NCBI GenBank assembly: GCA_000004985.1
Contig: GG738886.1
Length of the DNA: 64,000 bases
Source of the DNA: Naegleria gruberi
Taxonomy: Eukaryota
Strand: one strand, 5' to 3'
Numbering within the stretch: the stretch's first letter is position 1; the number at the start of each line of letters is the position of its first letter. Shown here piece by piece: positions 14,875 through 64,000 of the stretch. The notes beneath the pieces were generated by a model, which ran no database searches, had not been told where the DNA came from, and saw nothing but the letters and a program-made list of their open reading frames with translations. Made by a program: the position numbers and the translations under genes.

Positions 14875-15784
14875 ATGTCTGAAAAACAAGTTAGAGTGCA
14901 ACTGGTCGATTTTAACATTCCGAAAGGATCATCATGTGAATCCTTTCGAATATTTGAAAAGAAAGTTAAGAATTCATCTAATTAACTCATTTTCTTGCTC
15001 TTTCGATCCAGTTGCTTCTCTAGAACGGAAAAAGGGAATGTCCTGTATACAAATCGATAGGAATTATAATCTTTTAATGATATCAAACCAACAAACTTTA
15101 TTATTTTACGAGTTGGAAACTAGACGAAAGTTATTCGATTGTCAATTTAAAAAAATTATTTATTATTTCAAAATACTTGATGGAGATTTATTTATATGTA
15201 GTTGTGAAAGAAATGCTACATCATTCCGAATTGAAAGATATAATTTTAAACTAATTTTGAAAACTAGAAAATATTGGAAATGTTTCGTTTGGGAAAGTCG
15301 ACATTTTGGACAATTTTCTGGATTCGATCTTGGACCAGATCACTTAATTTATTTGTGTGATCTCAAAACGAACAAAATAGCCACTTTAAAATACGAAACT
15401 GGCCAAGAAATAGTTTCGTTATCAGGCACAGTTTCATATTGTTCGAATCTCACTTTTTCTCCCAATGGAGATTTGTATGTTTCTGGTTTTCTAGTATTGC
15501 ACCATTTAATTAGAAATCACAACAATTTATGGCTAAGCAAGAATCAAATTGCAATTTCAATGTTAGGGAACTTTCGAATATCTTATCCTGAAGTTATTTT
15601 CTTTGAAAAATCAAGTGAGAGAATTTACCTATCCGATAGAGAAAGAATAGTTCTAATTTTTGATAAGAATATGAAAAAAATCAATTCGAAACTTGTTGGT
15701 AGTGACATTATTGGATTAACAATTGATGAAAGAACTGGATATTGTTATGTTGCTACTGGGAAACGATTGTTTATTTACAAATGA
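14875..15784 (+). CDS. Hypothetical protein, possibly beta-propeller or NHL-like. Model join(14875..14935,15012..15784).
   Basis: The ATG 14875 exon (MSEKQVRVQLVDFNIPKGSS) joins ORF 14936..15784 in frame (phase 1) across a 76-nt intron gtgaat...gatccag. No motif identified. Confidence 0.4.
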
Positions 15785-20184: not shown

Positions 20185-20257
20185 GGGGTCTTGGCGCAGT
20201 CGGTAGCGCGTAGGTCTCATAATCCTAAGGTCGTGAGTTCGATCCTCACAGACCCCA
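20185..20257 (+). tRNA. tRNA-Met (anticodon CAU), elongator type.
   Basis: The 73-nt GGGGTCTTGGCGCAGTCGGTAGCGCGTAGGTCTCATAATCCTAAGGTCGTGAGTTCGATCCTCACAGACCCCA folds as a cloverleaf. Acceptor stem GGGGTCT/AGACCCC, anticodon loop CTCATAA, T-arm GGTCGTGAGTTCGATCCTCAC. The T-run at 20260-20265 is a Pol III terminator. Confidence 0.85.
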
Positions 20258-31715: not shown

Positions 31716-33127
31716 TTATGCAGAAACAGTAGTAACAAGACCAAATACTAAACTAAGGGTCAAATAAATAACAAATGTCAACCCAACACTCATGGCAAAA
31801 ATAGTCCACTTGTAGATACGGTCTGAAACTTCGGTAATGGCGAAACAAGCAAATCCAATAATGAATCCACACATTAATCCTCCCAAGTGGCCAGCATAAT
31901 CTACATAATCAGAGAAACTCCACAAAAGTGTAATTACAATAATAAATCCAACACTGATGCATTGCATAATCTTTGGCTGAGTTGGAATCTTCTTCCAACG
32001 AATGATAATATTAGCAACCTTGGCACCAATCAATCCCATAATTGCTCCAGAAGCTCCAACTGAAACACTATCTGGAAGGGCAACACAGCTCAATAAATTA
32101 CCTCCAACACCTGCAATAATATAAATTGGAAGAACACGATACCACTTCCAAGTCTTTTCATAACCCATACAAATCATTACTTGAACAAATAAATTCATAA
32201 ACAAGTGCAAAAATCCTGCGTGCATTATGAGTGGAGTGAATAAACGCCAAAGTTGATATTCCTTCTTGATCTTGTAAGCAGATTTGGCTCCTAATAAGAG
32301 AAGAGTTGAACTAGATGGCCCAATAGATGGATTAGAACTATCAATACCTCCAACAGATACCTCTACAATAAAGTAAATGATTTGTACAATGGAAATCCAA
32401 AAGCAAAATGTCTTGAGCATATTCTTGTAATCTTGCTTTCTGGTTGGTGAACAAGGTGGTCCAACAAAACAAGGACAACAACACATTAAACAGGTCTAAT
32501 TCCGATTAATATTAAATAATAGTATACAAAACTTACATGATACCATTGTGGTGTAATACCATGCAAATTATAACTCCAAAACATGTCCTCATTCATATCA
32601 TATTGTTGTTGATAAGGATCTGTAGGTCTATTTTGTGATTCAACATCAACTGGTTGACCTGTTGCACTATAACTTCCACCTCCTAATAATAATAATATTA
32701 ATTTCCAATATTGTTATTATTATTGTTGTATAATTTTGTATATAATTCAATTGAAAAGGGTCAAATAGAAAAACCTACCAGCAGTACTACCAGATCCTTG
32801 AGAGAACATACCACCAAGTCTAGAAAACATGCCTCCAAACATTGATCCTCCTCCAGAAGAAGAACCTCCATTATCAGCAGCTCCACCAGCATAATTAGCA
32901 GAAGAAGGTTGATAAGAAACAGCTTCTCCCGAACTTAATACTCTTCCTGATGATGATGATGCATTGTTATTGTTGTTTGAATTGGAAGAACCATTACCGA
33001 GAGATCTTCCTCCTCCAAGGCTTCTACCACCTCCACCACCGAGGGATCTTCCTCCTCCTGATGATGGATTATTGTTATTGTTATTATTATTATCGCTTGG
33101 TAAATCACGAATTGTATGAACAGGCAT
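31716..33127 (-). CDS. Rhomboid-family intramembrane serine protease with a poly-Asn/Gly-rich N-terminal extension, complement(join(31716..32495,32537..32682,32779..33127)).
   Basis: Catalytic GASGAIMG (GxSG) and the His-containing helix AGHLGGLMCGF. LFTPLIMHAGFLHLFMNLF (H..N). Introns are 41 nt (gtaagt..aattag) and 96 nt (gtaggt..attag), and the phases check. N-terminus NNNNNNNNNPSSGGGRSLGGGGGRSLGGG. Confidence 0.8.
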
Positions 33128-33540
33128 GATGATTGAATTATATACAAAAATTATTCTACAATGGATACAAAAAAAACTAAAAAGACTCGAGAATTCGGTT
33201 AAGGTTATTAGAGTTTGATATTTTGTTTTTTAATAAAGTTGATGGTTGTTGATGGAAAAAGTTTGAGAGAAAAATTGTTGTTCTCCTCTTCCTTTGTTTT
33301 TTTTAAATTTTATTTTAGAATTAAAAACGAAGAAGGAATGTCGGGTGATGGCGCTGTTTTTGTGGGGTTGTGAGTTCGATTCTGGATGGTTGCTTCTACG
33401 ATTTTTTCTAGTTTGTTTGAAGAGTTCGTGATTTGCCAGTTTGGTAATTGAGAAGTATGCAGTTTTGAACAGTGCATTGTCTAATTCAGATATTTTTCTC
33501 ACGCAATTGAATTGTTCAGGTTTCGAATATCAATGGATGA

Positions 33541-34614
33541 TTAGCTGTTATTCGATTCATTCTCATTGTTGCATGCGGCATGTTGATCCTTATCATTGAG
33601 AATAAACTTCATAGACATTGGATAGAAATCATCAAAGAATGAATAGTGTCGATATTCCAAATAATTATGTGGCCACTTGTCAATACCTAATTCGTTTCGA
33701 ATAGAATAAAACTTTCTCTTAATGGTCGATAAACTGCATCCTAATAAGGTACATGCTTGTTGTTGAGTTAAATGCAAAATTCTAATCATCTCATCTGTGG
33801 TAATATTCTCAACTGTTCTCTTTCTAGTAAATTTGACATTAGAATCTATTTGAACAATTGAAACTCTTTGATCTTTCGAATAATTAAAACAAGTTTCACC
33901 CTCAGAAAAGTGTTTTTCTAATAATTCATTCATCGATTCACATGCATCCAATTCCTCATCATCCATAATCACATACGAAACTTTTGTTTGCGTTGGTTTC
34001 TCCACCTCATTCGAAACTGTTCCTTCCTTTCGTTTAAATTCATACTTTCTCTTTATCTTTTTCGATTTTTTAATTCCTGCTGTTTCTTTAAACATGTAAT
34101 CCACAATAAATGTTTGATTATCTTTAGATTTCGAATCATTGACACCCTTGTTCGTTATTGGAAAGTTTACAATATTAGAAATATTGTGATTACCACTTGT
34201 GGAAGCAACTGCTACTGCTTTGATTCCTTGTGGATGAGAATTTGTTGGTGATGAAACATTTGAATGATGAGCATTCACATGTGATGAATGTAAACAACTT
34301 CCATGCTTGTTAAATTGGTTTAAATTATTCGAAACATCCACTTGTTGATGATACTTTACATGTGGACTAGAGACGATTGTTGTAATGGTAGAAGTGAGAG
34401 GTGAAGTGGTTGGTGGAGGAAGCACGACAATGCTTCTTTGATGTTCAAAGTTATTCGAAAGGTTGTGGCTGGAAGTGTGTCCATGATTTGAGTTGGATAC
34501 AAGTTTCGAATAGTTTTGAAGTGAATTATTAACATGTTGTTGTTCATGTTTCGAAAAAGATATGTGTTCTTCTCCATGCTCATGTGGGGCGGTTGATATT
34601 ATTCGATTCAACAT
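33541..34614 (-). CDS. RWP-RK domain-containing putative transcription factor.
   Basis: C-terminal ITTDEMIRILHLTQQQACTLLGCSLSTIKRKFYSIRNELGIDKWPHNY matches RWP-RK (L..YF.L....AA..LGV..T.LKR.CR..GI.RWP.RK). The N-terminal part is low-complexity and His/Asn-rich. Confidence 0.7.
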   Translation of the reverse strand: MLNRIISTAPHEHGEEHISFSKHEQQHVNNSLQNYSKLVSNSNHGHTSSHNLSNNFEHQRSIVVLPPPTTSPLTSTITTIVSSPHVKYHQQVDVSNNLNQFNKHGSCLHSSHVNAHHSNVSSPTNSHPQGIKAVAVASTSGNHNISNIVNFPITNKGVNDSKSKDNQTFIVDYMFKETAGIKKSKKIKRKYEFKRKEGTVSNEVEKPTQTKVSYVIMDDEELDACESMNELLEKHFSEGETCFNYSKDQRVSIVQIDSNVKFTRKRTVENITTDEMIRILHLTQQQACTLLGCSLSTIKRKFYSIRNELGIDKWPHNYLEYRHYSFFDDFYPMSMKFILNDKDQHAACNNENESNNS

Positions 34615-35383
34615 GTTTGAAACTGAAACCCAAAGTGTGGCCTTTTTTTACGTTGTTTACCTTCACTGTGTTTGATTGTCCTCGGTCTTTCATCTCTGGG
34701 TAGTGTAATCTTGTGGGAGAAACTAGACGAAAGTTGAATTATTATAATAATGGGGTCTCTTTTTTACAACTTCAGAGGACTACCTGCTTTTGGTTGTTGC
34801 TTCCATTTGGAAAGCCTTGTTTGGTGCATGTGGAGCTTTGTTTACTTGTTACGAGTTGTGCTCTGAGATGTTGCGTAACAATTGACAAACTAAACTTGAC
34901 AAAATTTGCCCTTTGAGTTTTGTTTCTCTATGAAAATTGAGATAAAACCAATTAAATTGGGCAGAGAGCTGCAATTTATTGATACAATAAATTATCTAGA
35001 GTTACAACTGTTGGATTGTTTACAATAACTTGTTCTAGACGAAAGTTTTCGAATAGTTTCTAGTAGGTTGGAAATTTGTCTTACTGTTCATTGAATCTTG
35101 TGGTTGCTGTAATTTGGAACTGTATTGTTGTAATACAATTCTGGATTTTTTACATTTACCTAAATAAAAATTATGCAAGTCAGTTTGAAACTGTCAAATG
35201 TTATCTGTGGCAACTACTTTGCACTTCACAAGTTAAGTAATCTAGCATACAATTTGGGTGGGTACTGAACTGTTATTTTATTTTGATATTTGATGATGGT
35301 ACGTAGTTGTACGAAATCATGCGGTAACGAATTGCCTTATTCGAAATTTGGTTTCTTTACATTTTTTAAATAAACAATTACTT

Positions 35384-36784
35384 TCAAATACAATCATCTA
35401 CAATTGCATTGGATATGTTGCATTCTCTAAATTCAAGTAATTTCTTTCCAAAGTTGTTATTTTTCAATGAAATGTATTTCAAATGTTTGAATTTTTCGTA
35501 ATTTTCAAGGATTGAAGTGGCACCCTCTATTCCAATGAAATTAATATCCAATTCAATAATGGTCAATTGAGATAGTAATTTGGAATTGGAGAGGAGAATC
35601 ATTCCCTTGTTAGAAATCTTATTGTCATTCATTTTGAGAGTTTTTAAACTTTTGAGACAGTTAATGGTTGGATTGACCAATGCTTCAATGAATTCCCAAC
35701 CAAGTCTGCACTCTCTCACTGTTAAATTTTCCAAACTTTTTAAGGATTGGTTTCTAATGACGGATTTGAAAGCTTTCTCTCCAATTTTCAAACCAGACAT
35801 GTCCAAAGTAATCATATTGTTGAATTTAACTCGAGGAGAAATTGCAAAGGGTGAAAACATGTTCCAACCCATCCTTAATGATTTCAATTGTGTAAAATTC
35901 AAAGTTTCTGATAATTTAACCTCTTTCATATTATCAATTGAATATTTGAAACTTTTTTGAATATTCAAATAGGTCAAATTGCAAAGATTCGAATTTGGAG
36001 CAACAAGTAGTTCAAAATCTTGATCTGTGAATGAGCAATCAGATGCTGAAAGGTAGGTTAAATGAGAGGCATATTTCCAATTTGCAATGGATGATAATGA
36101 TACTCTTGCTTGGTCGATAATTAATTTCTCAAGCTTTGTAACTTTGGAATTTTCACTGAAAAGTGAACTCAAATTTAAAGAGGCACATCCAGAAACATCC
36201 AAAACCTTCAAATTTCCAATTAAATCCCTCTCCATTATTGTCAACAGGTCATGTTCAGCAAAGGTATAACTAAAATTGAGGTCAATCTTTAATTCTTCCA
36301 AATTTTTGAAAACTTGCATTGTTCCAATTCTATCAAACGGAAAATAATCATTTCGTATAATGAGTTTTTTCAAATTTTCACATTTCAATTCTTGTATTAA
36401 ATACAATGGCACAATTCCATTATCTTTCACTTCCAATTCCAAATATTGTTTCGAAAATCTATTCCCACCACAACCTTTATACGATTTAAAATGATTCGAA
36501 CTAATTTCTCTTAACGAAACCTTTCCCACACAATATCTAAACTGTCTACTCACCACCCCACAAACCCTCATCACAAAAACTCCCTCCAAATACTCGAAAA
36601 TATTCATCACCATTTCATTCAATAAAAATTCATTATCCGATGCTAAATTAAATTCGCAATACACTTCATCATCATTTAAATAATCGAGAGAGTGATCGTG
36701 ATAGAGAGGTGTTTGAGAAAGTGGTTTTTGATTGTTGTTATTGTTATTTGGAGGAGGAGATTTTTTGAATAGTTTTCTTGACAT
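35384..36784 (-). CDS. F-box/LRR-repeat protein.
   Basis: MVMNIFEYLEGVFVMRVCGVVSRQFRYCV F-box-like region. About 12 LRRs (LKxLxLxxN...). N-terminal PPPNNNNNN tract. Confidence 0.65.
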   Translation of the reverse strand: MSRKLFKKSPPPNNNNNNQKPLSQTPLYHDHSLDYLNDDEVYCEFNLASDNEFLLNEMVMNIFEYLEGVFVMRVCGVVSRQFRYCVGKVSLREISSNHFKSYKGCGGNRFSKQYLELEVKDNGIVPLYLIQELKCENLKKLIIRNDYFPFDRIGTMQVFKNLEELKIDLNFSYTFAEHDLLTIMERDLIGNLKVLDVSGCASLNLSSLFSENSKVTKLEKLIIDQARVSLSSIANWKYASHLTYLSASDCSFTDQDFELLVAPNSNLCNLTYLNIQKSFKYSIDNMKEVKLSETLNFTQLKSLRMGWNMFSPFAISPRVKFNNMITLDMSGLKIGEKAFKSVIRNQSLKSLENLTVRECRLGWEFIEALVNPTINCLKSLKTLKMNDNKISNKGMILLSNSKLLSQLTIIELDINFIGIEGATSILENYEKFKHLKYISLKNNNFGKKLLEFRECNISNAIVDDCI

Positions 36785-46502: not shown

Positions 46503-49500
46503 ATGATGATCAAAACGACAGAGTTGAGATCGATATTAGTATCCGCATTATTATTCTTCTTCTTGTTAATCATAGTATTTTGTGGATCGATATTTGGGTT
46601 GAGTGGATTTACTTTCGATCAGGATGCATACAACAAGATTTGGAATGATGAAACGGAAATTTGGTTTGGTCAATCGACAGCTCTTACAGGTCAAACTAAA
46701 GAGTGAGTAATCTTTTCTCCAATTATTATAATGATGTAAAGACTAGGATATCCAATGATGACAGGAGTTCAGGCAGCCTTTAAAGAAATCAATGAAAATT
46801 CTGGTGGAGTTTGGGGAGGTAAAAAACTGAGGTTAATTACATTGGATGATGGTTATGAGCCAGCTAGAACTGTAAATAATACGATTCAGCTCATTAATAA
46901 TAACACAATATTTGGATTGATTGGATATATGGGGACAGGTACTTCGCAAGCTGCATTTCCATATCTTACTGAATCAAAACTTCCATTTATTGGTGCATTC
47001 ACGGGAGGATTGTTTTTGAGAACACCTTTTGTTTCTAATATTGTGAATATTAGAGCTAGTTATCAAGACGAAACTGTAGCTATGGTAGAATATTTAGTTA
47101 CAGTAAAAATGGTGAGGAGAATTGCAATCTTTTATCAGAATGATGCATTCGGCATGTCAGGGGTTGATGGTTCTAGTTTGGCATTGACGGCTCTTGGAAT
47201 GAGTTTAGTTTCAAGAGGTTCTTATGAAAGAAATACTATTGTTGTCGCGAAGGCAGTTTCAGATATTGTTGCTGGAAATCCACAGGCAATTATCTGCATG
47301 TCAACATACAAACCAACATTGGAATTTATCAATACAGTCAAGAATAGGACAGATTTTGACCCAAACATTGTTTTCATGACTGGCTCTTTTATTGGTTCTA
47401 ATATTTTACCATACAGAGATAGTGTTGTCATTACTCAGGTATTACCTCCACCAACCAACACAAAATACCCAATTGTTCTAGCCTATCAGAGAGCTATGAA
47501 AGCATCCAATCCAAATTTCGTGCCTTCCTATGTGGAATTGGAAGGATACATTGCTGGAAAGATGGCAGCAAATATATTGACTCAAAGAGTTTCTGGAGAT
47601 TTGACACGCAGTAATTTTCTTCAACTTGTCTATTCCACTAGTACCTATATTATTGATAATCAAGTTATTGGACCGTACAAGCAATGTAGCTCTTCTAGAT
47701 CCTTGCATTACTTTTTTGATGATCCTCAAAATCAAGATGCCTTTCTCTATCCAGTTTTACAACCACGTACAAGATTGATACCACGAAAAATTGAATCAAC
47801 ATTTGTTGCGCCTTGCTCTTGTAATCAAGGTTTGAGATCTATTTGGAAAACTTCTCAAAATGCTGATAGTTCATTTAGTGAAATTTCAGATCCAATGGTT
47901 TGGGATACTACTAGTACTACTAATTATACCTGCTTCTATGATCCAACAAAGACTCTCCCACCAATTGTATTTGGACACATATCATCTGGAGATAAGTATG
48001 ATGAAGATTTTCTAGTTGGAGTGTTATTAGCATTCAACGAAAAAAACAATCAAAAAGGTATACGTGGAAGCGTGCTAAGAATTCTCACAAAAACCCCATC
48101 CAATAGTTCTGCTTCTGCCCTTATTGATACAGTTAATTTGTTGAAAAATGATTTTAATGTACTTGGAATTTTGGGTGGATTTTTACCAAGTTCTAGTTAT
48201 GCTCAATTCGTAGATCAGTTTAAAACTCAATTACCTAACACATTGTTTCTATCGCCTTCCACATCATATGACTCTCCAACATTGAGAAGTGTATTTTCTC
48301 CAAATATTATTCATATTGGATTATCTATTCGTGAAAAGTTGGCCACCTTTTTCGATTTTGAAATGAATGCAAATGGGCATTCCAGATTTTCTGTAGTATA
48401 TGGTAAATCCACTGAAGGGGCAGCAGATTGTAAAGAGTTCAAGAACCAATTGAGCCAATTTGGATTAACTGTTGAGAGTGAATATGAACATTCATCATCT
48501 GTTACAGATTACAAGTTAGTCACACAAGCACTTGTTTCAAATGATGGTAACCCTCAATCTGTTGTTGTTCTACTTCCTGAAAATATATCCTCATTCTCTT
48601 ATTTGAGTACTGTAATCAAGGGTATTGTGAATATTGGAAAGAGAGATGACTTGTCAATATTCTTTTTGTACTTTAAATATACATCTTGGGTGGCAGATGT
48701 TTTTAACTTGATGGCTAGTCTTAATACCAAAAATAATGTATATCTTATTCAAAGATATCCTCATGTTGTGGACACTCAATTACCTTTAGTTGCAGCTTAC
48801 AATAATTTGTTCAGCAAGTATTATTCTTCTTCTGTTTCTACAACTGGATCTTTAGAAGGTTTTTTGGCTGCAAGCTTTTTAATTGAAGTTTTGGAGAATA
48901 TTTCTCCATCTGCAGATATTAATGGACCAAGTACAATTTTCACAATTTACCAAACGCAACAATTTTTGAAATATTCCATTCCATTTGGTAATTTCATTAG
49001 TAATTCTTGCAATTTGGGCATGAGAACAACCTATTTGTACAAGCTGGACGGATCGACCTTTACAAATGTCAAAATTCAATCATTTGACAAGACTAAATGT
49101 GGTCTTTCAGAAGATATTTTTTCCTCTGAAAGTTCCATTGAAAAACAACTTTTATTTGGTAGATTACTACCCGTGGAAGATGCTTCACTTCCATATGATG
49201 ATTTTAGTGTTGGTTTGAATGCATTATTCACATCTTATAACACTAAGGGAACACTGGATACTGCAACTTTGCACTTAAAAACTCTGTACTATTCAAGCAG
49301 AGAGGAAATGACCAAGAAGGCAGAGGAGCTCATTCTAAAATACAAAATTTTTGGATTTTTAGGATCTAGACTAGTCTATGATGTTACTGAACTCAAGGCT
49401 ATAATGGAAAATTACAAGATACCAATTATAGGTCCACTTTCTTCTCAGTTAGCTTTGAGAGAACCTTACTCAAGGTTTGTGGTCAATTTAAGACCTAGCA

Positions 49501-51176
49501 TTGTTGAGGAATCTGTAGTTTTGACAAGATATCTGACCTCTGTTATTACCTCAAGAAAACCAACAGTTCTCATTCTCAGCGGATCATCTTACTATTGGCA
49601 GCAAAATAGTAATAATGTTGTTTCATTTTATTCGAAGAGTATTGAAGGAGTTTCGATTTCATCAACTAGTATTTCGTCAGTCTCTTCCACTTCTGGTAGA
49701 GCTGTAGAAGGTTCTAAGCCAGACTTGGTTCTTTTGTTGGCCTCTCCAACAGAAGTTTCACAATTTCTAACCAACTATCCCACTTTTTCCTCTCTAATTG
49801 GAATACCTTCAGAAATTTCATCTATTTCTAGTTTCAAAACACTCTTAAATGATATACCTTCTTCAGTAATAATTAGTCCTCAATTTTTAGAAAGGTATGA
49901 TAAGGCTTCATCAACAAACTTTATGGCCAGAGATTTCTTGATAGACATGGCCAAATACTCAACCTCATCAAATACCTCCACACTAATGTATGAAGCTTAT
50001 GCAGTGGGTTATATGACAACAACTGTTCTCAAGTTCATGTCCCAAGCCAATATGGATTATAGCAGAGAAAAATTTGTTTCCACATTTTTCGAGAGGTCTG
50101 TATTTGAATTAGGAAATAATGAATTTGGACCGTATGGCGATGAGTGCTCCATACAATCCACTTTTGTAGTGAAAGGCTCTTGTGAATCTGTTTCTGTTTG
50201 TAATTGTAGTCAAGGCGTGAGAGCTCTTCAAATCAATTCTCTAACCTCATCCTCGGATAGTATTTTATATGAAATGAATTTCAAAACATGTGGATTGCAA
50301 GCTATTGAACCACTTCTTTCAGATGGAGCCATTGCTGGTGTTGCTGTTGGGGGTACACTAGCTTTTTTAGGTACTCTATTTGTTATACTAGTACTGATTT
50401 TCTGTGCAAGAAATAGATCCTCAGTTAAGAATGCTCCCAAGTCAGGAAATATCACTTGTGCATTTACGGATGTTCAAAGCAGTACAAAACTTTGGCAAAA
50501 TAATGAAAAGGCTATGAGAAATGCATTAGAAATTCATGACAAGATTATGAGGAAAAATCTTGAATTATTCAGAGGTTATGAGGTCAAGACAAATGGTGAT
50601 AGTTTCTTTGTTGCCTTTAAGGATCCATTTGATGCTGTTTTATGGTCTTTAACAGTTCAATTAGATTTATTGAATGCGAATTGGCCTTCAGAATTATATC
50701 ACGAATATGATTGCAGACAGGAATGGGATGAACGAATCAAGAAACCTTATTGGAGTGGATTGAGAGTGAGAATTGGACTTCATTACGGAAAGGGAGATTG
50801 CAAATGGGATAAAACCATGAAACGCTTCGACTATTTTGGAACAGTTGTAAACAAGTCAGCACGTATTGAAGCATTAGCACATGGAGGACAAGTTTTGATC
50901 AGTGAAGAATTATTGGAAGTAACTAAAGACCTCTTCCAAGATGTTAAGAAAATAGCCAGTTGTGATGAATTTCCAGCCTATCAAACCACTACAAAAGAGG
51001 AGAAGAAACTAGCTGTGGACGACAAAACCTCAACAACAGCTAGTCTCAAACATCAAAATTCTCTCTCTAGTGTATTGGGTAGGAGAAGAACTAAAATTCT
51101 AATTGATAGAACATTCACAGCCGCTGAGTTGGGAGTTTATCCATTGAAGGGACTATCTGAATCGAGCAGACTTTTC
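46503..51176 (+). CDS. Receptor-type class III adenylate/guanylate cyclase: signal peptide, three tandem periplasmic-binding-protein type I (LivK/ANF-receptor-like) modules, one TM, cyclase domain. Model join(46503..46702,46742..>51176); the 3' end is lost in the N gap.
   Basis: Signal-like exon 1 MMIKTTELRSILVSALLFFFLLIIVF. A 39-nt intron gtgagt..gtaaag gives ...ALTGQTKELGYPMMTGVQAAFKEINENSGGVWGGKKL, the LivK N-terminal signature. TM AIAGVAVGGTLAFLGTLFVILVLIFC. Cyclase motifs FTDVQSSTKLW...GYEVKTNGDSFFVAFKD...LRVRIGLHYG...DYFGTVVNKSARIEALAHGGQVLISEE. The ORF then runs into the 50-N gap at 51177. Confidence 0.8.
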
Positions 51177-51226
51177 NNNNNNNNNNNNNNNNNNNNNNNN
51201 NNNNNNNNNNNNNNNNNNNNNNNNNN
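51177..51226. other. Assembly gap (50 N).
   Basis: Run of n. Confidence 0.95.
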
Positions 51227-52400: not shown

Positions 52401-52788
52401 GGGGTTTGGGGTTGGGTTTGGGTTTGGGTTTGGGTTTGGGTTTGGGTTTGGGTTTGGGTTTGGGTTTGGGTTTGGGTTTGGGTTTGGGTTTGGGTTTGGG
52501 TTTGGGTTTGGGTTTGGGTTTGGGTTTGGGTTTGGGTTTGGGTTTGGGTTTGGGTTTGGGTTTGGGTTTGGGTTTGGGTTTGGGTTTGGGTTTGGGTTTG
52601 GGTTTGGGTTTGGGTTTGGGTTTGGGTTTGGGTTTGGGTTTGGGTTTGGGTTGGGTTTGGGTTTGGGTTTGGGTTTGGGTTTGGGTTTGGGTTTGGGTCT
52701 GGGTTTGGGTTTGGGTTTGGGTTTGGGTTTGGAATTGGGTTTGGGTTTGGGTTTGGGTTTGGGTTTGGGTTTGGGTTTGGGTTTGGGT
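52401..52788 (+). repeat. Telomere-like hexamer array (TTTGGG)n, G-rich on the + strand, internal to the scaffold.
   Basis: About 64 tandem units of gggttt, with a few variants (ttggg, gggtct, ggaattggg). It runs directly into the N gap. Confidence 0.9.
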
Positions 52789-55700
52789 NNNNNNNNNNNN
52801 NNNNNNNNNNNNNNNNNNNNNNNNNNNNNNNNNNNNNNNNNNNNNNNNNNNNNNNNNNNNNNNNNNNNNNNNNNNNNNNNNNNNNNNNNNNNNNNNNNNN
52901 NNNNNNNNNNNNNNNNNNNNNNNNNNNNNNNNNNNNNNNNNNNNNNNNNNNNNNNNNNNNNNNNNNNNNNNNNNNNNNNNNNNNNNNNNNNNNNNNNNNN
53001 NNNNNNNNNNNNNNNNNNNNNNNNNNNNNNNNNNNNNNNNNNNNNNNNNNNNNNNNNNNNNNNNNNNNNNNNNNNNNNNNNNNNNNNNNNNNNNNNNNNN
53101 NNNNNNNNNNNNNNNNNNNNNNNNNNNNNNNNNNNNNNNNNNNNNNNNNNNNNNNNNNNNNNNNNNNNNNNNNNNNNNNNNNNNNNNNNNNNNNNNNNNN
53201 NNNNNNNNNNNNNNNNNNNNNNNNNNNNNNNNNNNNNNNNNNNNNNNNNNNNNNNNNNNNNNNNNNNNNNNNNNNNNNNNNNNNNNNNNNNNNNNNNNNN
53301 NNNNNNNNNNNNNNNNNNNNNNNNNNNNNNNNNNNNNNNNNNNNNNNNNNNNNNNNNNNNNNNNNNNNNNNNNNNNNNNNNNNNNNNNNNNNNNNNNNNN
53401 NNNNNNNNNNNNNNNNNNNNNNNNNNNNNNNNNNNNNNNNNNNNNNNNNNNNNNNNNNNNNNNNNNNNNNNNNNNNNNNNNNNNNNNNNNNNNNNNNNNN
53501 NNNNNNNNNNNNNNNNNNNNNNNNNNNNNNNNNNNNNNNNNNNNNNNNNNNNNNNNNNNNNNNNNNNNNNNNNNNNNNNNNNNNNNNNNNNNNNNNNNNN
53601 NNNNNNNNNNNNNNNNNNNNNNNNNNNNNNNNNNNNNNNNNNNNNNNNNNNNNNNNNNNNNNNNNNNNNNNNNNNNNNNNNNNNNNNNNNNNNNNNNNNN
53701 NNNNNNNNNNNNNNNNNNNNNNNNNNNNNNNNNNNNNNNNNNNNNNNNNNNNNNNNNNNNNNNNNNNNNNNNNNNNNNNNNNNNNNNNNNNNNNNNNNNN
53801 NNNNNNNNNNNNNNNNNNNNNNNNNNNNNNNNNNNNNNNNNNNNNNNNNNNNNNNNNNNNNNNNNNNNNNNNNNNNNNNNNNNNNNNNNNNNNNNNNNNN
53901 NNNNNNNNNNNNNNNNNNNNNNNNNNNNNNNNNNNNNNNNNNNNNNNNNNNNNNNNNNNNNNNNNNNNNNNNNNNNNNNNNNNNNNNNNNNNNNNNNNNN
54001 NNNNNNNNNNNNNNNNNNNNNNNNNNNNNNNNNNNNNNNNNNNNNNNNNNNNNNNNNNNNNNNNNNNNNNNNNNNNNNNNNNNNNNNNNNNNNNNNNNNN
54101 NNNNNNNNNNNNNNNNNNNNNNNNNNNNNNNNNNNNNNNNNNNNNNNNNNNNNNNNNNNNNNNNNNNNNNNNNNNNNNNNNNNNNNNNNNNNNNNNNNNN
54201 NNNNNNNNNNNNNNNNNNNNNNNNNNNNNNNNNNNNNNNNNNNNNNNNNNNNNNNNNNNNNNNNNNNNNNNNNNNNNNNNNNNNNNNNNNNNNNNNNNNN
54301 NNNNNNNNNNNNNNNNNNNNNNNNNNNNNNNNNNNNNNNNNNNNNNNNNNNNNNNNNNNNNNNNNNNNNNNNNNNNNNNNNNNNNNNNNNNNNNNNNNNN
54401 NNNNNNNNNNNNNNNNNNNNNNNNNNNNNNNNNNNNNNNNNNNNNNNNNNNNNNNNNNNNNNNNNNNNNNNNNNNNNNNNNNNNNNNNNNNNNNNNNNNN
54501 NNNNNNNNNNNNNNNNNNNNNNNNNNNNNNNNNNNNNNNNNNNNNNNNNNNNNNNNNNNNNNNNNNNNNNNNNNNNNNNNNNNNNNNNNNNNNNNNNNNN
54601 NNNNNNNNNNNNNNNNNNNNNNNNNNNNNNNNNNNNNNNNNNNNNNNNNNNNNNNNNNNNNNNNNNNNNNNNNNNNNNNNNNNNNNNNNNNNNNNNNNNN
54701 NNNNNNNNNNNNNNNNNNNNNNNNNNNNNNNNNNNNNNNNNNNNNNNNNNNNNNNNNNNNNNNNNNNNNNNNNNNNNNNNNNNNNNNNNNNNNNNNNNNN
54801 NNNNNNNNNNNNNNNNNNNNNNNNNNNNNNNNNNNNNNNNNNNNNNNNNNNNNNNNNNNNNNNNNNNNNNNNNNNNNNNNNNNNNNNNNNNNNNNNNNNN
54901 NNNNNNNNNNNNNNNNNNNNNNNNNNNNNNNNNNNNNNNNNNNNNNNNNNNNNNNNNNNNNNNNNNNNNNNNNNNNNNNNNNNNNNNNNNNNNNNNNNNN
55001 NNNNNNNNNNNNNNNNNNNNNNNNNNNNNNNNNNNNNNNNNNNNNNNNNNNNNNNNNNNNNNNNNNNNNNNNNNNNNNNNNNNNNNNNNNNNNNNNNNNN
55101 NNNNNNNNNNNNNNNNNNNNNNNNNNNNNNNNNNNNNNNNNNNNNNNNNNNNNNNNNNNNNNNNNNNNNNNNNNNNNNNNNNNNNNNNNNNNNNNNNNNN
55201 NNNNNNNNNNNNNNNNNNNNNNNNNNNNNNNNNNNNNNNNNNNNNNNNNNNNNNNNNNNNNNNNNNNNNNNNNNNNNNNNNNNNNNNNNNNNNNNNNNNN
55301 NNNNNNNNNNNNNNNNNNNNNNNNNNNNNNNNNNNNNNNNNNNNNNNNNNNNNNNNNNNNNNNNNNNNNNNNNNNNNNNNNNNNNNNNNNNNNNNNNNNN
55401 NNNNNNNNNNNNNNNNNNNNNNNNNNNNNNNNNNNNNNNNNNNNNNNNNNNNNNNNNNNNNNNNNNNNNNNNNNNNNNNNNNNNNNNNNNNNNNNNNNNN
55501 NNNNNNNNNNNNNNNNNNNNNNNNNNNNNNNNNNNNNNNNNNNNNNNNNNNNNNNNNNNNNNNNNNNNNNNNNNNNNNNNNNNNNNNNNNNNNNNNNNNN
55601 NNNNNNNNNNNNNNNNNNNNNNNNNNNNNNNNNNNNNNNNNNNNNNNNNNNNNNNNNNNNNNNNNNNNNNNNNNNNNNNNNNNNNNNNNNNNNNNNNNNN

Positions 55701-58700
55701 NNNNNNNNNNNNNNNNNNNNNNNNNNNNNNNNNNNNNNNNNNNNNNNNNNNNNNNNNNNNNNNNNNNNNNNNNNNNNNNNNNNNNNNNNNNNNNNNNNNN
55801 NNNNNNNNNNNNNNNNNNNNNNNNNNNNNNNNNNNNNNNNNNNNNNNNNNNNNNNNNNNNNNNNNNNNNNNNNNNNNNNNNNNNNNNNNNNNNNNNNNNN
55901 NNNNNNNNNNNNNNNNNNNNNNNNNNNNNNNNNNNNNNNNNNNNNNNNNNNNNNNNNNNNNNNNNNNNNNNNNNNNNNNNNNNNNNNNNNNNNNNNNNNN
56001 NNNNNNNNNNNNNNNNNNNNNNNNNNNNNNNNNNNNNNNNNNNNNNNNNNNNNNNNNNNNNNNNNNNNNNNNNNNNNNNNNNNNNNNNNNNNNNNNNNNN
56101 NNNNNNNNNNNNNNNNNNNNNNNNNNNNNNNNNNNNNNNNNNNNNNNNNNNNNNNNNNNNNNNNNNNNNNNNNNNNNNNNNNNNNNNNNNNNNNNNNNNN
56201 NNNNNNNNNNNNNNNNNNNNNNNNNNNNNNNNNNNNNNNNNNNNNNNNNNNNNNNNNNNNNNNNNNNNNNNNNNNNNNNNNNNNNNNNNNNNNNNNNNNN
56301 NNNNNNNNNNNNNNNNNNNNNNNNNNNNNNNNNNNNNNNNNNNNNNNNNNNNNNNNNNNNNNNNNNNNNNNNNNNNNNNNNNNNNNNNNNNNNNNNNNNN
56401 NNNNNNNNNNNNNNNNNNNNNNNNNNNNNNNNNNNNNNNNNNNNNNNNNNNNNNNNNNNNNNNNNNNNNNNNNNNNNNNNNNNNNNNNNNNNNNNNNNNN
56501 NNNNNNNNNNNNNNNNNNNNNNNNNNNNNNNNNNNNNNNNNNNNNNNNNNNNNNNNNNNNNNNNNNNNNNNNNNNNNNNNNNNNNNNNNNNNNNNNNNNN
56601 NNNNNNNNNNNNNNNNNNNNNNNNNNNNNNNNNNNNNNNNNNNNNNNNNNNNNNNNNNNNNNNNNNNNNNNNNNNNNNNNNNNNNNNNNNNNNNNNNNNN
56701 NNNNNNNNNNNNNNNNNNNNNNNNNNNNNNNNNNNNNNNNNNNNNNNNNNNNNNNNNNNNNNNNNNNNNNNNNNNNNNNNNNNNNNNNNNNNNNNNNNNN
56801 NNNNNNNNNNNNNNNNNNNNNNNNNNNNNNNNNNNNNNNNNNNNNNNNNNNNNNNNNNNNNNNNNNNNNNNNNNNNNNNNNNNNNNNNNNNNNNNNNNNN
56901 NNNNNNNNNNNNNNNNNNNNNNNNNNNNNNNNNNNNNNNNNNNNNNNNNNNNNNNNNNNNNNNNNNNNNNNNNNNNNNNNNNNNNNNNNNNNNNNNNNNN
57001 NNNNNNNNNNNNNNNNNNNNNNNNNNNNNNNNNNNNNNNNNNNNNNNNNNNNNNNNNNNNNNNNNNNNNNNNNNNNNNNNNNNNNNNNNNNNNNNNNNNN
57101 NNNNNNNNNNNNNNNNNNNNNNNNNNNNNNNNNNNNNNNNNNNNNNNNNNNNNNNNNNNNNNNNNNNNNNNNNNNNNNNNNNNNNNNNNNNNNNNNNNNN
57201 NNNNNNNNNNNNNNNNNNNNNNNNNNNNNNNNNNNNNNNNNNNNNNNNNNNNNNNNNNNNNNNNNNNNNNNNNNNNNNNNNNNNNNNNNNNNNNNNNNNN
57301 NNNNNNNNNNNNNNNNNNNNNNNNNNNNNNNNNNNNNNNNNNNNNNNNNNNNNNNNNNNNNNNNNNNNNNNNNNNNNNNNNNNNNNNNNNNNNNNNNNNN
57401 NNNNNNNNNNNNNNNNNNNNNNNNNNNNNNNNNNNNNNNNNNNNNNNNNNNNNNNNNNNNNNNNNNNNNNNNNNNNNNNNNNNNNNNNNNNNNNNNNNNN
57501 NNNNNNNNNNNNNNNNNNNNNNNNNNNNNNNNNNNNNNNNNNNNNNNNNNNNNNNNNNNNNNNNNNNNNNNNNNNNNNNNNNNNNNNNNNNNNNNNNNNN
57601 NNNNNNNNNNNNNNNNNNNNNNNNNNNNNNNNNNNNNNNNNNNNNNNNNNNNNNNNNNNNNNNNNNNNNNNNNNNNNNNNNNNNNNNNNNNNNNNNNNNN
57701 NNNNNNNNNNNNNNNNNNNNNNNNNNNNNNNNNNNNNNNNNNNNNNNNNNNNNNNNNNNNNNNNNNNNNNNNNNNNNNNNNNNNNNNNNNNNNNNNNNNN
57801 NNNNNNNNNNNNNNNNNNNNNNNNNNNNNNNNNNNNNNNNNNNNNNNNNNNNNNNNNNNNNNNNNNNNNNNNNNNNNNNNNNNNNNNNNNNNNNNNNNNN
57901 NNNNNNNNNNNNNNNNNNNNNNNNNNNNNNNNNNNNNNNNNNNNNNNNNNNNNNNNNNNNNNNNNNNNNNNNNNNNNNNNNNNNNNNNNNNNNNNNNNNN
58001 NNNNNNNNNNNNNNNNNNNNNNNNNNNNNNNNNNNNNNNNNNNNNNNNNNNNNNNNNNNNNNNNNNNNNNNNNNNNNNNNNNNNNNNNNNNNNNNNNNNN
58101 NNNNNNNNNNNNNNNNNNNNNNNNNNNNNNNNNNNNNNNNNNNNNNNNNNNNNNNNNNNNNNNNNNNNNNNNNNNNNNNNNNNNNNNNNNNNNNNNNNNN
58201 NNNNNNNNNNNNNNNNNNNNNNNNNNNNNNNNNNNNNNNNNNNNNNNNNNNNNNNNNNNNNNNNNNNNNNNNNNNNNNNNNNNNNNNNNNNNNNNNNNNN
58301 NNNNNNNNNNNNNNNNNNNNNNNNNNNNNNNNNNNNNNNNNNNNNNNNNNNNNNNNNNNNNNNNNNNNNNNNNNNNNNNNNNNNNNNNNNNNNNNNNNNN
58401 NNNNNNNNNNNNNNNNNNNNNNNNNNNNNNNNNNNNNNNNNNNNNNNNNNNNNNNNNNNNNNNNNNNNNNNNNNNNNNNNNNNNNNNNNNNNNNNNNNNN
58501 NNNNNNNNNNNNNNNNNNNNNNNNNNNNNNNNNNNNNNNNNNNNNNNNNNNNNNNNNNNNNNNNNNNNNNNNNNNNNNNNNNNNNNNNNNNNNNNNNNNN
58601 NNNNNNNNNNNNNNNNNNNNNNNNNNNNNNNNNNNNNNNNNNNNNNNNNNNNNNNNNNNNNNNNNNNNNNNNNNNNNNNNNNNNNNNNNNNNNNNNNNNN

Positions 58701-61073
58701 NNNNNNNNNNNNNNNNNNNNNNNNNNNNNNNNNNNNNNNNNNNNNNNNNNNNNNNNNNNNNNNNNNNNNNNNNNNNNNNNNNNNNNNNNNNNNNNNNNNN
58801 NNNNNNNNNNNNNNNNNNNNNNNNNNNNNNNNNNNNNNNNNNNNNNNNNNNNNNNNNNNNNNNNNNNNNNNNNNNNNNNNNNNNNNNNNNNNNNNNNNNN
58901 NNNNNNNNNNNNNNNNNNNNNNNNNNNNNNNNNNNNNNNNNNNNNNNNNNNNNNNNNNNNNNNNNNNNNNNNNNNNNNNNNNNNNNNNNNNNNNNNNNNN
59001 NNNNNNNNNNNNNNNNNNNNNNNNNNNNNNNNNNNNNNNNNNNNNNNNNNNNNNNNNNNNNNNNNNNNNNNNNNNNNNNNNNNNNNNNNNNNNNNNNNNN
59101 NNNNNNNNNNNNNNNNNNNNNNNNNNNNNNNNNNNNNNNNNNNNNNNNNNNNNNNNNNNNNNNNNNNNNNNNNNNNNNNNNNNNNNNNNNNNNNNNNNNN
59201 NNNNNNNNNNNNNNNNNNNNNNNNNNNNNNNNNNNNNNNNNNNNNNNNNNNNNNNNNNNNNNNNNNNNNNNNNNNNNNNNNNNNNNNNNNNNNNNNNNNN
59301 NNNNNNNNNNNNNNNNNNNNNNNNNNNNNNNNNNNNNNNNNNNNNNNNNNNNNNNNNNNNNNNNNNNNNNNNNNNNNNNNNNNNNNNNNNNNNNNNNNNN
59401 NNNNNNNNNNNNNNNNNNNNNNNNNNNNNNNNNNNNNNNNNNNNNNNNNNNNNNNNNNNNNNNNNNNNNNNNNNNNNNNNNNNNNNNNNNNNNNNNNNNN
59501 NNNNNNNNNNNNNNNNNNNNNNNNNNNNNNNNNNNNNNNNNNNNNNNNNNNNNNNNNNNNNNNNNNNNNNNNNNNNNNNNNNNNNNNNNNNNNNNNNNNN
59601 NNNNNNNNNNNNNNNNNNNNNNNNNNNNNNNNNNNNNNNNNNNNNNNNNNNNNNNNNNNNNNNNNNNNNNNNNNNNNNNNNNNNNNNNNNNNNNNNNNNN
59701 NNNNNNNNNNNNNNNNNNNNNNNNNNNNNNNNNNNNNNNNNNNNNNNNNNNNNNNNNNNNNNNNNNNNNNNNNNNNNNNNNNNNNNNNNNNNNNNNNNNN
59801 NNNNNNNNNNNNNNNNNNNNNNNNNNNNNNNNNNNNNNNNNNNNNNNNNNNNNNNNNNNNNNNNNNNNNNNNNNNNNNNNNNNNNNNNNNNNNNNNNNNN
59901 NNNNNNNNNNNNNNNNNNNNNNNNNNNNNNNNNNNNNNNNNNNNNNNNNNNNNNNNNNNNNNNNNNNNNNNNNNNNNNNNNNNNNNNNNNNNNNNNNNNN
60001 NNNNNNNNNNNNNNNNNNNNNNNNNNNNNNNNNNNNNNNNNNNNNNNNNNNNNNNNNNNNNNNNNNNNNNNNNNNNNNNNNNNNNNNNNNNNNNNNNNNN
60101 NNNNNNNNNNNNNNNNNNNNNNNNNNNNNNNNNNNNNNNNNNNNNNNNNNNNNNNNNNNNNNNNNNNNNNNNNNNNNNNNNNNNNNNNNNNNNNNNNNNN
60201 NNNNNNNNNNNNNNNNNNNNNNNNNNNNNNNNNNNNNNNNNNNNNNNNNNNNNNNNNNNNNNNNNNNNNNNNNNNNNNNNNNNNNNNNNNNNNNNNNNNN
60301 NNNNNNNNNNNNNNNNNNNNNNNNNNNNNNNNNNNNNNNNNNNNNNNNNNNNNNNNNNNNNNNNNNNNNNNNNNNNNNNNNNNNNNNNNNNNNNNNNNNN
60401 NNNNNNNNNNNNNNNNNNNNNNNNNNNNNNNNNNNNNNNNNNNNNNNNNNNNNNNNNNNNNNNNNNNNNNNNNNNNNNNNNNNNNNNNNNNNNNNNNNNN
60501 NNNNNNNNNNNNNNNNNNNNNNNNNNNNNNNNNNNNNNNNNNNNNNNNNNNNNNNNNNNNNNNNNNNNNNNNNNNNNNNNNNNNNNNNNNNNNNNNNNNN
60601 NNNNNNNNNNNNNNNNNNNNNNNNNNNNNNNNNNNNNNNNNNNNNNNNNNNNNNNNNNNNNNNNNNNNNNNNNNNNNNNNNNNNNNNNNNNNNNNNNNNN
60701 NNNNNNNNNNNNNNNNNNNNNNNNNNNNNNNNNNNNNNNNNNNNNNNNNNNNNNNNNNNNNNNNNNNNNNNNNNNNNNNNNNNNNNNNNNNNNNNNNNNN
60801 NNNNNNNNNNNNNNNNNNNNNNNNNNNNNNNNNNNNNNNNNNNNNNNNNNNNNNNNNNNNNNNNNNNNNNNNNNNNNNNNNNNNNNNNNNNNNNNNNNNN
60901 NNNNNNNNNNNNNNNNNNNNNNNNNNNNNNNNNNNNNNNNNNNNNNNNNNNNNNNNNNNNNNNNNNNNNNNNNNNNNNNNNNNNNNNNNNNNNNNNNNNN
61001 NNNNNNNNNNNNNNNNNNNNNNNNNNNNNNNNNNNNNNNNNNNNNNNNNNNNNNNNNNNNNNNNNNNNNNNNN
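52789..61073. other. Assembly gap (8,285 N).
   Basis: Run of n. The two giant ORFs of 2,972 and 2,901 aa across it are artefacts of translating N. Confidence 0.95.
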
Positions 61074-63310: not shown

Positions 63311-63620
63311 ATAGTTGACCTCTTTTACCTCACATCTTCCCTTTTCACTCTATACTTTTATATCTACAGACATGAACTTTTGAAATTTGATATGAGAGTG
63401 ATTATAGATGTTGTTAATGATGATATATACTATATAATCTCATTAAACGATTTTGAAATTAACATTCTTCCTATGGTATCATTTTACAAATTTTAATCTT
63501 ACATTATTTACAAAGTTAATATTTTATAAATTGAAAAACTAAATATACCACGTTTTCCCACTCATCATTTCCGATCGAATGATATAAAATTTTATGATAT
63601 TTGAATAAGTTTATAATTTT

Positions 63621-64000
63621 GGGCTAGGGTTTGAAGGTTGGGTTTGGGTTTGGGTTTGGGTTTGGGTTTGGGTTTGGGTTTGGGTTTGGGTTTGGGTTTG
63701 GGTTTGGGTTTGGGTTTGGGTTTGGGTTTGGGTTTGGGTTTGGGTTTGGGTTTGGGTTTGGGTTTGGGTTTGGGTTTGGGTTTGGGTTTGGGTTTGGGTT
63801 TGGGTTTGGGTTTGGGTTTGGGTTTGGGTTTGGGTTTGGGTTTGGGTTTGGGTTTGGGTTTGGGTTTGGGTTTGGGTTTGGGTTTGGGTTTGGGTTTGGG
63901 TTTGGGTTTGGGTTTGGGTTTGGGTTTGGGTTTGGGTTTGGGTTTGGGTTTGGGTTTGGGTTTGGGTTTGGGTTTGGGTTTGGGTTTGGGTTTGGGTTTC
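63621..64000 (+). repeat. Telomere-like (TTTGGG)n array running off the window end; probable chromosome or scaffold terminus, G-strand 5' to 3'.
   Basis: After a degenerate start (gggctagggtttgaaggttgggtttggg), the gggttt hexamer is unbroken to position 64000. Confidence 0.85.

Follow-up and report, generated by a model that had tools for sequence, protein, structure and literature searches.

A divergent heterolobosean RWP-RK protein of Naegleria gruberi and the gene-free spacer upstream of its gene

RKD of plants and MID of Chlamydomonas are short RWP-RK proteins in which the domain lies near the C-terminus. The NLP/NIN proteins, which are nitrate-response factors of plants, have a C-terminal PB1 domain and a long N-terminal GAF-like/nitrate-sensing region. 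To our knowledge, humans have no RWP-RK factors. In Naegleria, RWP-RK ranks as the third-largest DNA-binding (transcription-factor) family in Table S3 of Herman et al. (2021, BMC Biol 19:142; PMC8296547), where 39 genes are counted for N. gruberi and 26-27 for N. fowleri strains, and an RWP-RK factor is reported there as up-regulated in mouse-passaged N. fowleri (PMC8296547). The preliminary description of the locus studied here held the family to be sparsely studied in protists, which is fair as far as it goes; the presence and size of the family in Naegleria are already published in that paper (PMC8296547).

The DNA that we analysed is a 64-kb stretch of N. gruberi (hereafter the window; GC 0.334, three N runs), in which the RWP-RK gene, the spacer and the neighbouring gene are arranged as follows.

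33541..34614, minus strand: CDS of NAEGRDRAFT_70845, single exon, 357 aa (from the ORF list and identity to the NCBI protein)
34615..35383, no strand assigned: spacer of 769 bp, gene-free, between two same-strand genes, with no coding signal and no Rfam family
35384..36784, minus strand: upstream neighbour on the same strand, an LRR protein by Pfam LRR families, whose stop codon is the distal edge of the spacer

We found that the ORF at 33541-34614 (minus strand) matches N. gruberi NAEGRDRAFT_70845 (EFC41423.1 / XP_002674167.1 / UniProt D2VPF8) from end to end at 100% identity. Hence, the gene is already annotated, with an identical single-exon model. NCBI and UniProt name the protein only 'predicted' or 'uncharacterized protein', despite its clear RWP-RK membership. 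The dicodon score (model trained on the other genes of the window) is positive in the reading frame of this ORF alone, the GC content of the CDS is 0.334, and a domain HMM search found no further RWP-RK gene in the window. For the neighbour, the reference protein P0091 (311 aa) corresponds to the C-terminal 311 aa of the LRR ORF and has the identical stop codon. Hence, the spacer boundary matches the annotation. With the gene annotated and both the presence and the expansion of RWP-RK in Naegleria published, the locus is ordinary and already known. A SNORD33-like match inside the CDS (33557-33642, minus strand) reached 26 bits against 44 and lacks the CUGA D box, so we attribute it to chance.

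The protein encoded by this gene is divided into four parts.

34075..34614, minus strand: N-terminal region, aa 1-180, low-complexity, S/N/H/T-rich, predicted to be disordered, poorly conserved
34027..34074, minus strand: basic motif KKSKKIKRKYEFKRKE, aa 181-196, conserved in a 3-sequence alignment
33664..33807, minus strand: RWP-RK-type helix-turn-helix core, aa 270-317, Pfam PF02042, ending in KWPHN, not RWPxR
33595..33663, minus strand: C-terminal extension, aa 318-340, subfamily-specific, Y..E..RH..F...YPMSMKFILN

The identification of the gene as RWP-RK was right: Pfam PF02042 matches with E=1.2e-6, the domain is found in 8/8 aligned relatives (best E=4e-11), and the helix-turn-helix core is predicted with confidence. 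The domain had also been described as clear and C-terminal. It is C-terminal, at aa 270-317 of 357 with only 40 residues after it, and less clear than stated, since the match takes in only positions 1-44 of the 49 in the model and scores 28.8 bits, just under the gathering cut-off of 29.3, and the protein has KWPHNY; the precomputed database Pfam (PF02042.22) does list NAEGRDRAFT_70845 as a match. The end of the model that is left unmatched is the name-giving motif, and the protein reads GIDKWPHNY at the site of RWPxRK. Beyond RWP-RK, Pfam detected no domain in the 357 aa.

Structure prediction separates the first 260 residues, predicted to be disordered, from an ordered C-terminal part. With AlphaFold2 and the alignment of relatives, pLDDT is mostly below 55 across aa 1-260, of which aa 1-180 align poorly to relatives, and aa 265-340 are predicted at pLDDT 84-97. 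The predicted helices of the core lie at 273-278, 284-291 and 295-309 (pLDDT 84-97), and the C-terminal extension is modelled as short helices packed against the core (pLDDT 86-94). Within the basic motif, the 3-sequence alignment shows no variation at K182, K185, I187, K188, R189, K190 and Y191; by its letters, the motif resembles a nuclear-localisation signal and may act as one.

Against the PDB, Foldseek placed at the top nothing but small helix-turn-helix domains that bind DNA (GerE, NarL/LiaR, LuxR-type VqmA/CviR, LysR and sigma region 4), at E values of 0.2-0.9 that are not significant, and there is a weak profile match to the NtrC-family DNA-binding domain (HMMER E=0.68). The predicted three-helix core superposes on bacterial GerE/NarL/LuxR-type and Fis/NtrC-type domains with a target-normalised TM-score of 0.5-0.6, likewise not significant. 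Judged from the model, the bacterial likeness appears to be a resemblance of fold only, without family membership.

In layout, NAEGRDRAFT_70845 is similar to RKD and MID, with a variable N-terminal region, a single C-terminal RWP-RK-type helix-turn-helix and no further Pfam domain; unlike these proteins, it is without the RK of RWPxRK and has a conserved YPMSLxFILN extension. It has the RWP-RK DNA-binding core in common with NLP/NIN proteins, but neither PB1 nor a GAF-like/nitrate-sensing region was detected with Pfam, and at 357 aa the protein is much shorter. Hence, NAEGRDRAFT_70845 is not NLP-type. The N. fowleri domains given in Table S3 of PMC8296547 (e.g. ...LHLSQTQACKILGCSISTLKRRFGELKHELGMEKWPSY) end in KWPSY or KWPQY, which is the KWPxY variant seen here. 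The 39 N. gruberi genes of that paper presumably include NAEGRDRAFT_70845; its sequence was not found in the N. gruberi list of the supplement text, which may be incomplete (PMC8296547).

The relatives comprise the N. gruberi paralogs NAEGRDRAFT_80184 and NAEGRDRAFT_74996, one Willaertia magna protein and several metagenome proteins, and no close ortholog occurs in the protein collections searched. A profile search over 1.84 billion cluster representatives (E<=1e-3) returned 90 matching representatives, about 40 of them matched through the C-terminal extension (profile position 175-179). In a 55-sequence alignment, we found the core LHLxQxQA..LGCSLSTLKRRFY to be near-invariant, with W314 and P315 each present in 53 of 55 relatives. 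Before WP, 32 of these relatives have K and 13 have R; where the RK pair would stand, most have Y/N/D/F, then Y/F. From the alignment, we define a heterolobosean KWP-type subfamily as LHLxQxQA..LGCSLSTLKRRFY..(K/R)WPxx(Y/F) followed by YP(M/L)SLxFILN. This signature is common to about 40 cluster representatives, including the N. gruberi paralogs and Willaertia magna, and all of its elements are present in NAEGRDRAFT_70845 at aa 280-340. We thus assign the protein to RWP-RK and, within this family, to a divergent heterolobosean branch.

In the Naegleria/Willaertia branch, (K/R)WPxx(Y/F) and the YPMSLxFILN tail together form a variant signature that is consistent. Since this signature lies near the Pfam threshold, family counts based on thresholds may be underestimates. 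Moreover, since N-Y stands in place of the basic RK pair, DNA binding as in plant RWP-RK proteins is not to be assumed.

The spacer upstream of the gene had been described as unusually long and less AT-rich than other intergenic DNA, and as the upstream region of this gene. Because the spacer starts at the stop codon of the LRR gene, part of it is the 3' flank of that gene, so the last of these descriptions is true of only part of the interval. Two features of the spacer bear on its division.

34615..34900, minus strand: GC-richer block, 286 bp, GC 0.392, adjoining the start codon (from fine-scale composition)
35277..35282, minus strand: AATAAA hexamer, about 100 nt past the stop of the LRR gene (read from the sequence)

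For length and GC content, the controls were gaps inside the window only. The spacer is 769 bp long against a median of 352 bp for the 26 other gaps shorter than 1 kb, two of which are longer (789 and 941 bp); the length is thus unusual only in a weak sense. Over its whole length, the spacer has a GC content of 0.334, equal to the window mean and to the CDS and at the 49th percentile among all 769-bp windows. The other gaps pooled have GC 0.305; compared with those that measure at least 300 bp, the spacer lies 0.9 SD higher, and its GC content is equalled or exceeded in 4 of the 26 gaps. Hence, the lower AT content does not hold for the spacer as a whole and does hold for the sub-block at 34615-34900.

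Among equally long windows in the other gaps, only 0.1% are as GC-rich as this block, a figure that is inflated because the boundary of the block was chosen post hoc, after the profile had been viewed. Its sense strand is A/C-rich and G-poor (A 0.37-0.43, C 0.18-0.25), and the remainder of the spacer (34901-35383) is ordinary, with GC 0.300. Several other genes of the window have GC 0.35-0.38 in the proximal 150 bp upstream. Hence, the block is the top end of a common pattern and forms no separate class.

The spacer was also said to have no ORFs, and this was borne out: ORF enumeration gave no ATG ORF longer than 38 aa on either strand, and the dicodon score is below zero in each of the six frames. 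An in-frame stop 12 codons upstream of the main ATG means that there is no in-frame extension of the protein. A tblastn search with 90 family proteins found nothing significant in the spacer. The weak tblastn matches of many relatives at about 35117-35200 (plus strand) come down to one string, 'ILDFLHLPK*', which resembles the VLHLPQ motif of the family and is followed by a stop; the domain HMM has no match there, and we consider these matches to be chance.

A structured 5' UTR or small ncRNA had been suggested for the spacer, and this was not borne out. We searched for Rfam families (Rfam 15) permissively over 33100-35500 and, at gathering level, over the entire window. In the spacer, the permissive scan gave only mir-989 at E<=1, a chance-level match (E=0.8, 19.1 bits against a gathering threshold of 59), and at gathering level nothing in the window matched save one tRNA outside the spacer. 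Compared with 200 dinucleotide shuffles, the block at 34615-34900 had fold z values of -0.12 on the sense strand and +1.50 on the antisense strand. Hence, it is no more stably folded than its shuffles. In a sliding scan of 120-nt windows on both strands, again with dinucleotide shuffles, the lowest values in the spacer were -2.3 to -2.9, at 34900-35059 and 35100-35219; these are no outliers, as both the CDS and the downstream gap contain values just as low (-2.5 to -3.0). A bacterial promoter/terminator scan, which is inapplicable to a eukaryote, gave no enrichment.

There are no repeats or mobile elements in the spacer beyond a 13-17-nt exact repeat, and no similarity to the rest of the window. 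The 13-nt exact direct repeat CTAGACGAAAGTT lies at 34723 and 35035, with a third exact copy within a CDS at 15120, and the flanks of the copies are dissimilar. The closest relative from outside N. gruberi, on Logan contig L001, has 51% identity and different neighbours; this is the sole foreign locus with upstream DNA, and that DNA has no similarity to the spacer. The relatives from metagenomes are located at contig ends or in compact loci. Taken as a whole, the spacer is not special, and it gives no sign of a structured RNA or a hidden gene.

The best explanation, which we consider probable, is that the locus comprises an ordinary, annotated Naegleria RWP-RK helix-turn-helix regulator that acts in the nucleus and a normal spacer with a promoter and an unstructured leader. 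The N-terminal half would be disordered and of low complexity, with the short basic motif serving as a putative nuclear-localisation signal. The compact domain at the C-terminus, some 75 aa long, most likely uses its third helix to bind DNA, so that the conserved STIKRKFY helix would read the DNA. On the heterolobosean branch, the classical RWPxRK would have become (K/R)WPxx(Y/F), followed by the conserved YPMSLxFILN, a tail that is predicted to pack on the helix-turn-helix core and may stabilise it. From the upstream side, the spacer would then begin with the 3' UTR of the LRR gene, within the distal 3' flank, where the AATAAA at 35277-35282 is possibly the poly(A) signal, and continue with the promoter of the RWP-RK gene and its 5' leader. 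We place the core promoter and an A/C-rich, unstructured leader in the proximal, somewhat GC-richer ~290 bp, that is, at 34615-34900. Counting against this explanation, the 286-bp block is GC-richer than nearly all non-ORF stretches of the same size in the window; the sub-threshold Pfam score, the N-Y in place of the RK pair and the lack of significance of the Foldseek matches also weigh against it.

For the block, two other origins have to be weighed. The spacer, chiefly at 34615-34900, could hold an element of structured 5' UTR or a small ncRNA missing from the annotation; pointing this way are the GC content of 0.392 (top 0.1% among non-ORF windows of equal length), the lack of an ORF in the block and the low fold z values of some 120-nt windows farther upstream (34900-35059 and 35100-35219). 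However, the block itself folds as its shuffles do, the low values are as frequent in the CDS and the downstream gap, the best Rfam match had E=0.8 with none at gathering level, and an A/C-rich, G-poor sense strand disfavours stable pairing; we regard this origin as highly improbable. The block could instead be the decayed remnant of a former N-terminal coding extension that is now only leader or spacer. The paralog NAEGRDRAFT_80184 is longer at its N-terminus by about 130 residues, the sense composition of the block resembles that of the low-complexity N-terminal CDS, and its dicodon scores of -0.05 to -0.06 are the highest in the spacer and near the -0.02 to -0.18 of the N-terminal CDS. But the best E value of the 90 family proteins within the block by tblastn was above 0.2, all three sense frames contain several stops (including the in-frame stop 12 codons before the ATG), and the longest open stretch is not headed by an ATG, which makes such a remnant quite unlikely.

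For the protein, the alternative is that sequence-specific DNA binding was lost, the loss of RK and the gain of YPMSLxFILN having turned the domain into a protein-interaction module. The motif KWPHNY in place of RWPxRK, the Pfam score 0.5 bit below the cut-off and the lack of significance of the matches to DNA-binding folds are consistent with this. Against it, the core with the basic recognition-helix residues STIKRKFY is near-invariant among 55 relatives, as expected for a functional DNA-reading helix, and the variant motif runs throughout an expanded family (26-39 genes per Naegleria species) that is catalogued as transcription factors in the supplement cited (PMC8296547). We therefore consider the loss of DNA binding unlikely and retain the reading of NAEGRDRAFT_70845 as a nuclear, DNA-binding regulator as the probable one. 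Since RWP-RK factors appear to be absent from humans and one is up-regulated in mouse-passaged N. fowleri (PMC8296547), the DNA-binding mode of the variant domain is worth an experiment; to this question, the NAEGRDRAFT_70845 locus contributes nothing special.

Two minor features lie in or at the proximal block.

34580..34693, minus strand: upstream ORF of 37 codons, out-of-frame and overlapping the main ATG (from ORF enumeration)
34738..34752, minus strand: putative TATA-like run, picked out by eye from the letters, some 125-135 bp before the ATG; on the sense strand it reads ..ATTATTATAATAATT..

The 37-codon ORF is relevant only with a transcription start upstream of 34693, and the relevance of the TATA-like run hinges in the same way on the position of the transcription start. 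One may conceive of the block as a functional transcribed leader in which the upstream ORF (34693-34580) gates the translation of the RWP-RK protein, for example by nutrient state, which we think very unlikely; what speaks for it is that the ORF exists and that the block is unusual in composition. If true, such gating would be a post-transcriptional layer of control on a member of the third-largest transcription-factor family of Naegleria.

The palindrome TTCGAA is over-represented in the window, occurring 52 times against 19 expected from base composition, and this excess is present despite window-wide CpG depletion (observed/expected 0.46). We found nine copies within the 1.1-kb stretch 33522-34555 over the RWP-RK gene (Poisson P ~1e-6), eight of them inside the CDS and one shortly after the stop codon. 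Since seven of the eight CDS copies lie in the frame xxT-TCG-AAx, encoding Ser-Lys or Ser-Asn, the cluster is for the most part a codon-pair effect of a protein rich in S, N and K, and this effect does not account for the choice of TCG there.

Next to this gene, a second GC-richer stretch (33300-33450, GC 0.37-0.41) was observed, whose minus strand is strongly C-rich and G-poor. The gap that holds it separates the RWP-RK gene from a downstream ORF:

32747-33127, minus strand: G/S/N-rich ORF of 126 aa, downstream of the RWP-RK gene

One 120-nt window in this stretch gave a fold z of -2.99 on the plus strand. The stretch is similar to the GC-richer block that lies upstream of this gene, a likeness suggestive of a promoter or leader composition that the two share.

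A covariance-model match was found inside the RWP-RK coding region:

33557-33642, minus strand: SNORD33-like (C/D-box snoRNA) match

This match scored 26.2 bits (E=0.095), where the gathering score is 44. It is thus sub-threshold and has a UGAUGA box without a CUGA D box; we judged it to be due to chance.

The 769-bp spacer upstream of the RWP-RK gene holds two of the three exact copies of the 13-mer CTAGACGAAAGTT in the window, and the third is within a CDS. Their positions, given for the first two over the longer 17-mer match described below, are:

15116-15132: copy of CTAGACGAAAGTT
34719-34735: copy of CTAGACGAAAGTT
35035-35047: copy of CTAGACGAAAGTT

Between the copies at 15116-15132 and 34719-34735, the repeat lengthens to a 17-mer. 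No similarity was found flanking the three copies in the window, and the repeat may be due to chance or may be a short cis-element.

On L001, the Logan contig with the closest non-gruberi relative of the RWP-RK protein, the called product is 203 aa long, and an in-frame upstream extension of ~28 Q/N/H-rich codons is possible (448-1143). The downstream neighbour on that contig carries a CEP19 domain, which differs from the arrangement in the window; hence, the two loci are not syntenic.

For the LRR gene at 35384-36784 (minus strand), we found an uninterrupted ORF of 466 aa, and the reference N. gruberi protein (311 aa) begins at Met156 of this ORF; the reference model may be N-terminally truncated. 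Further along the window is a large ORF:

46755-51176, plus strand: ORF of at least 1474 aa, entering a 50-N gap at 51177

It has ligand-binding domains of the periplasmic-binding-protein/ANF-receptor type and an adenylate/guanylate cyclase catalytic domain, and from this combination its predicted product is a receptor-type cyclase.

The window also has two GGGTTT arrays (~64 copies, 97% matches) in identical orientation, which look telomere-like:

52402-52788: array 1, adjoining an 8.3-kb N gap (52789-61073)
63618-63999: array 2, extending to the window end

The internal array, which lies beside the N gap, may represent either an interstitial tract of telomeric repeats or the point where scaffolding joined on a contig from a chromosome end.

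Rfam gave a single gathering-level match in the window:

20185-20257, plus strand: tRNA-Met (CAT) gene
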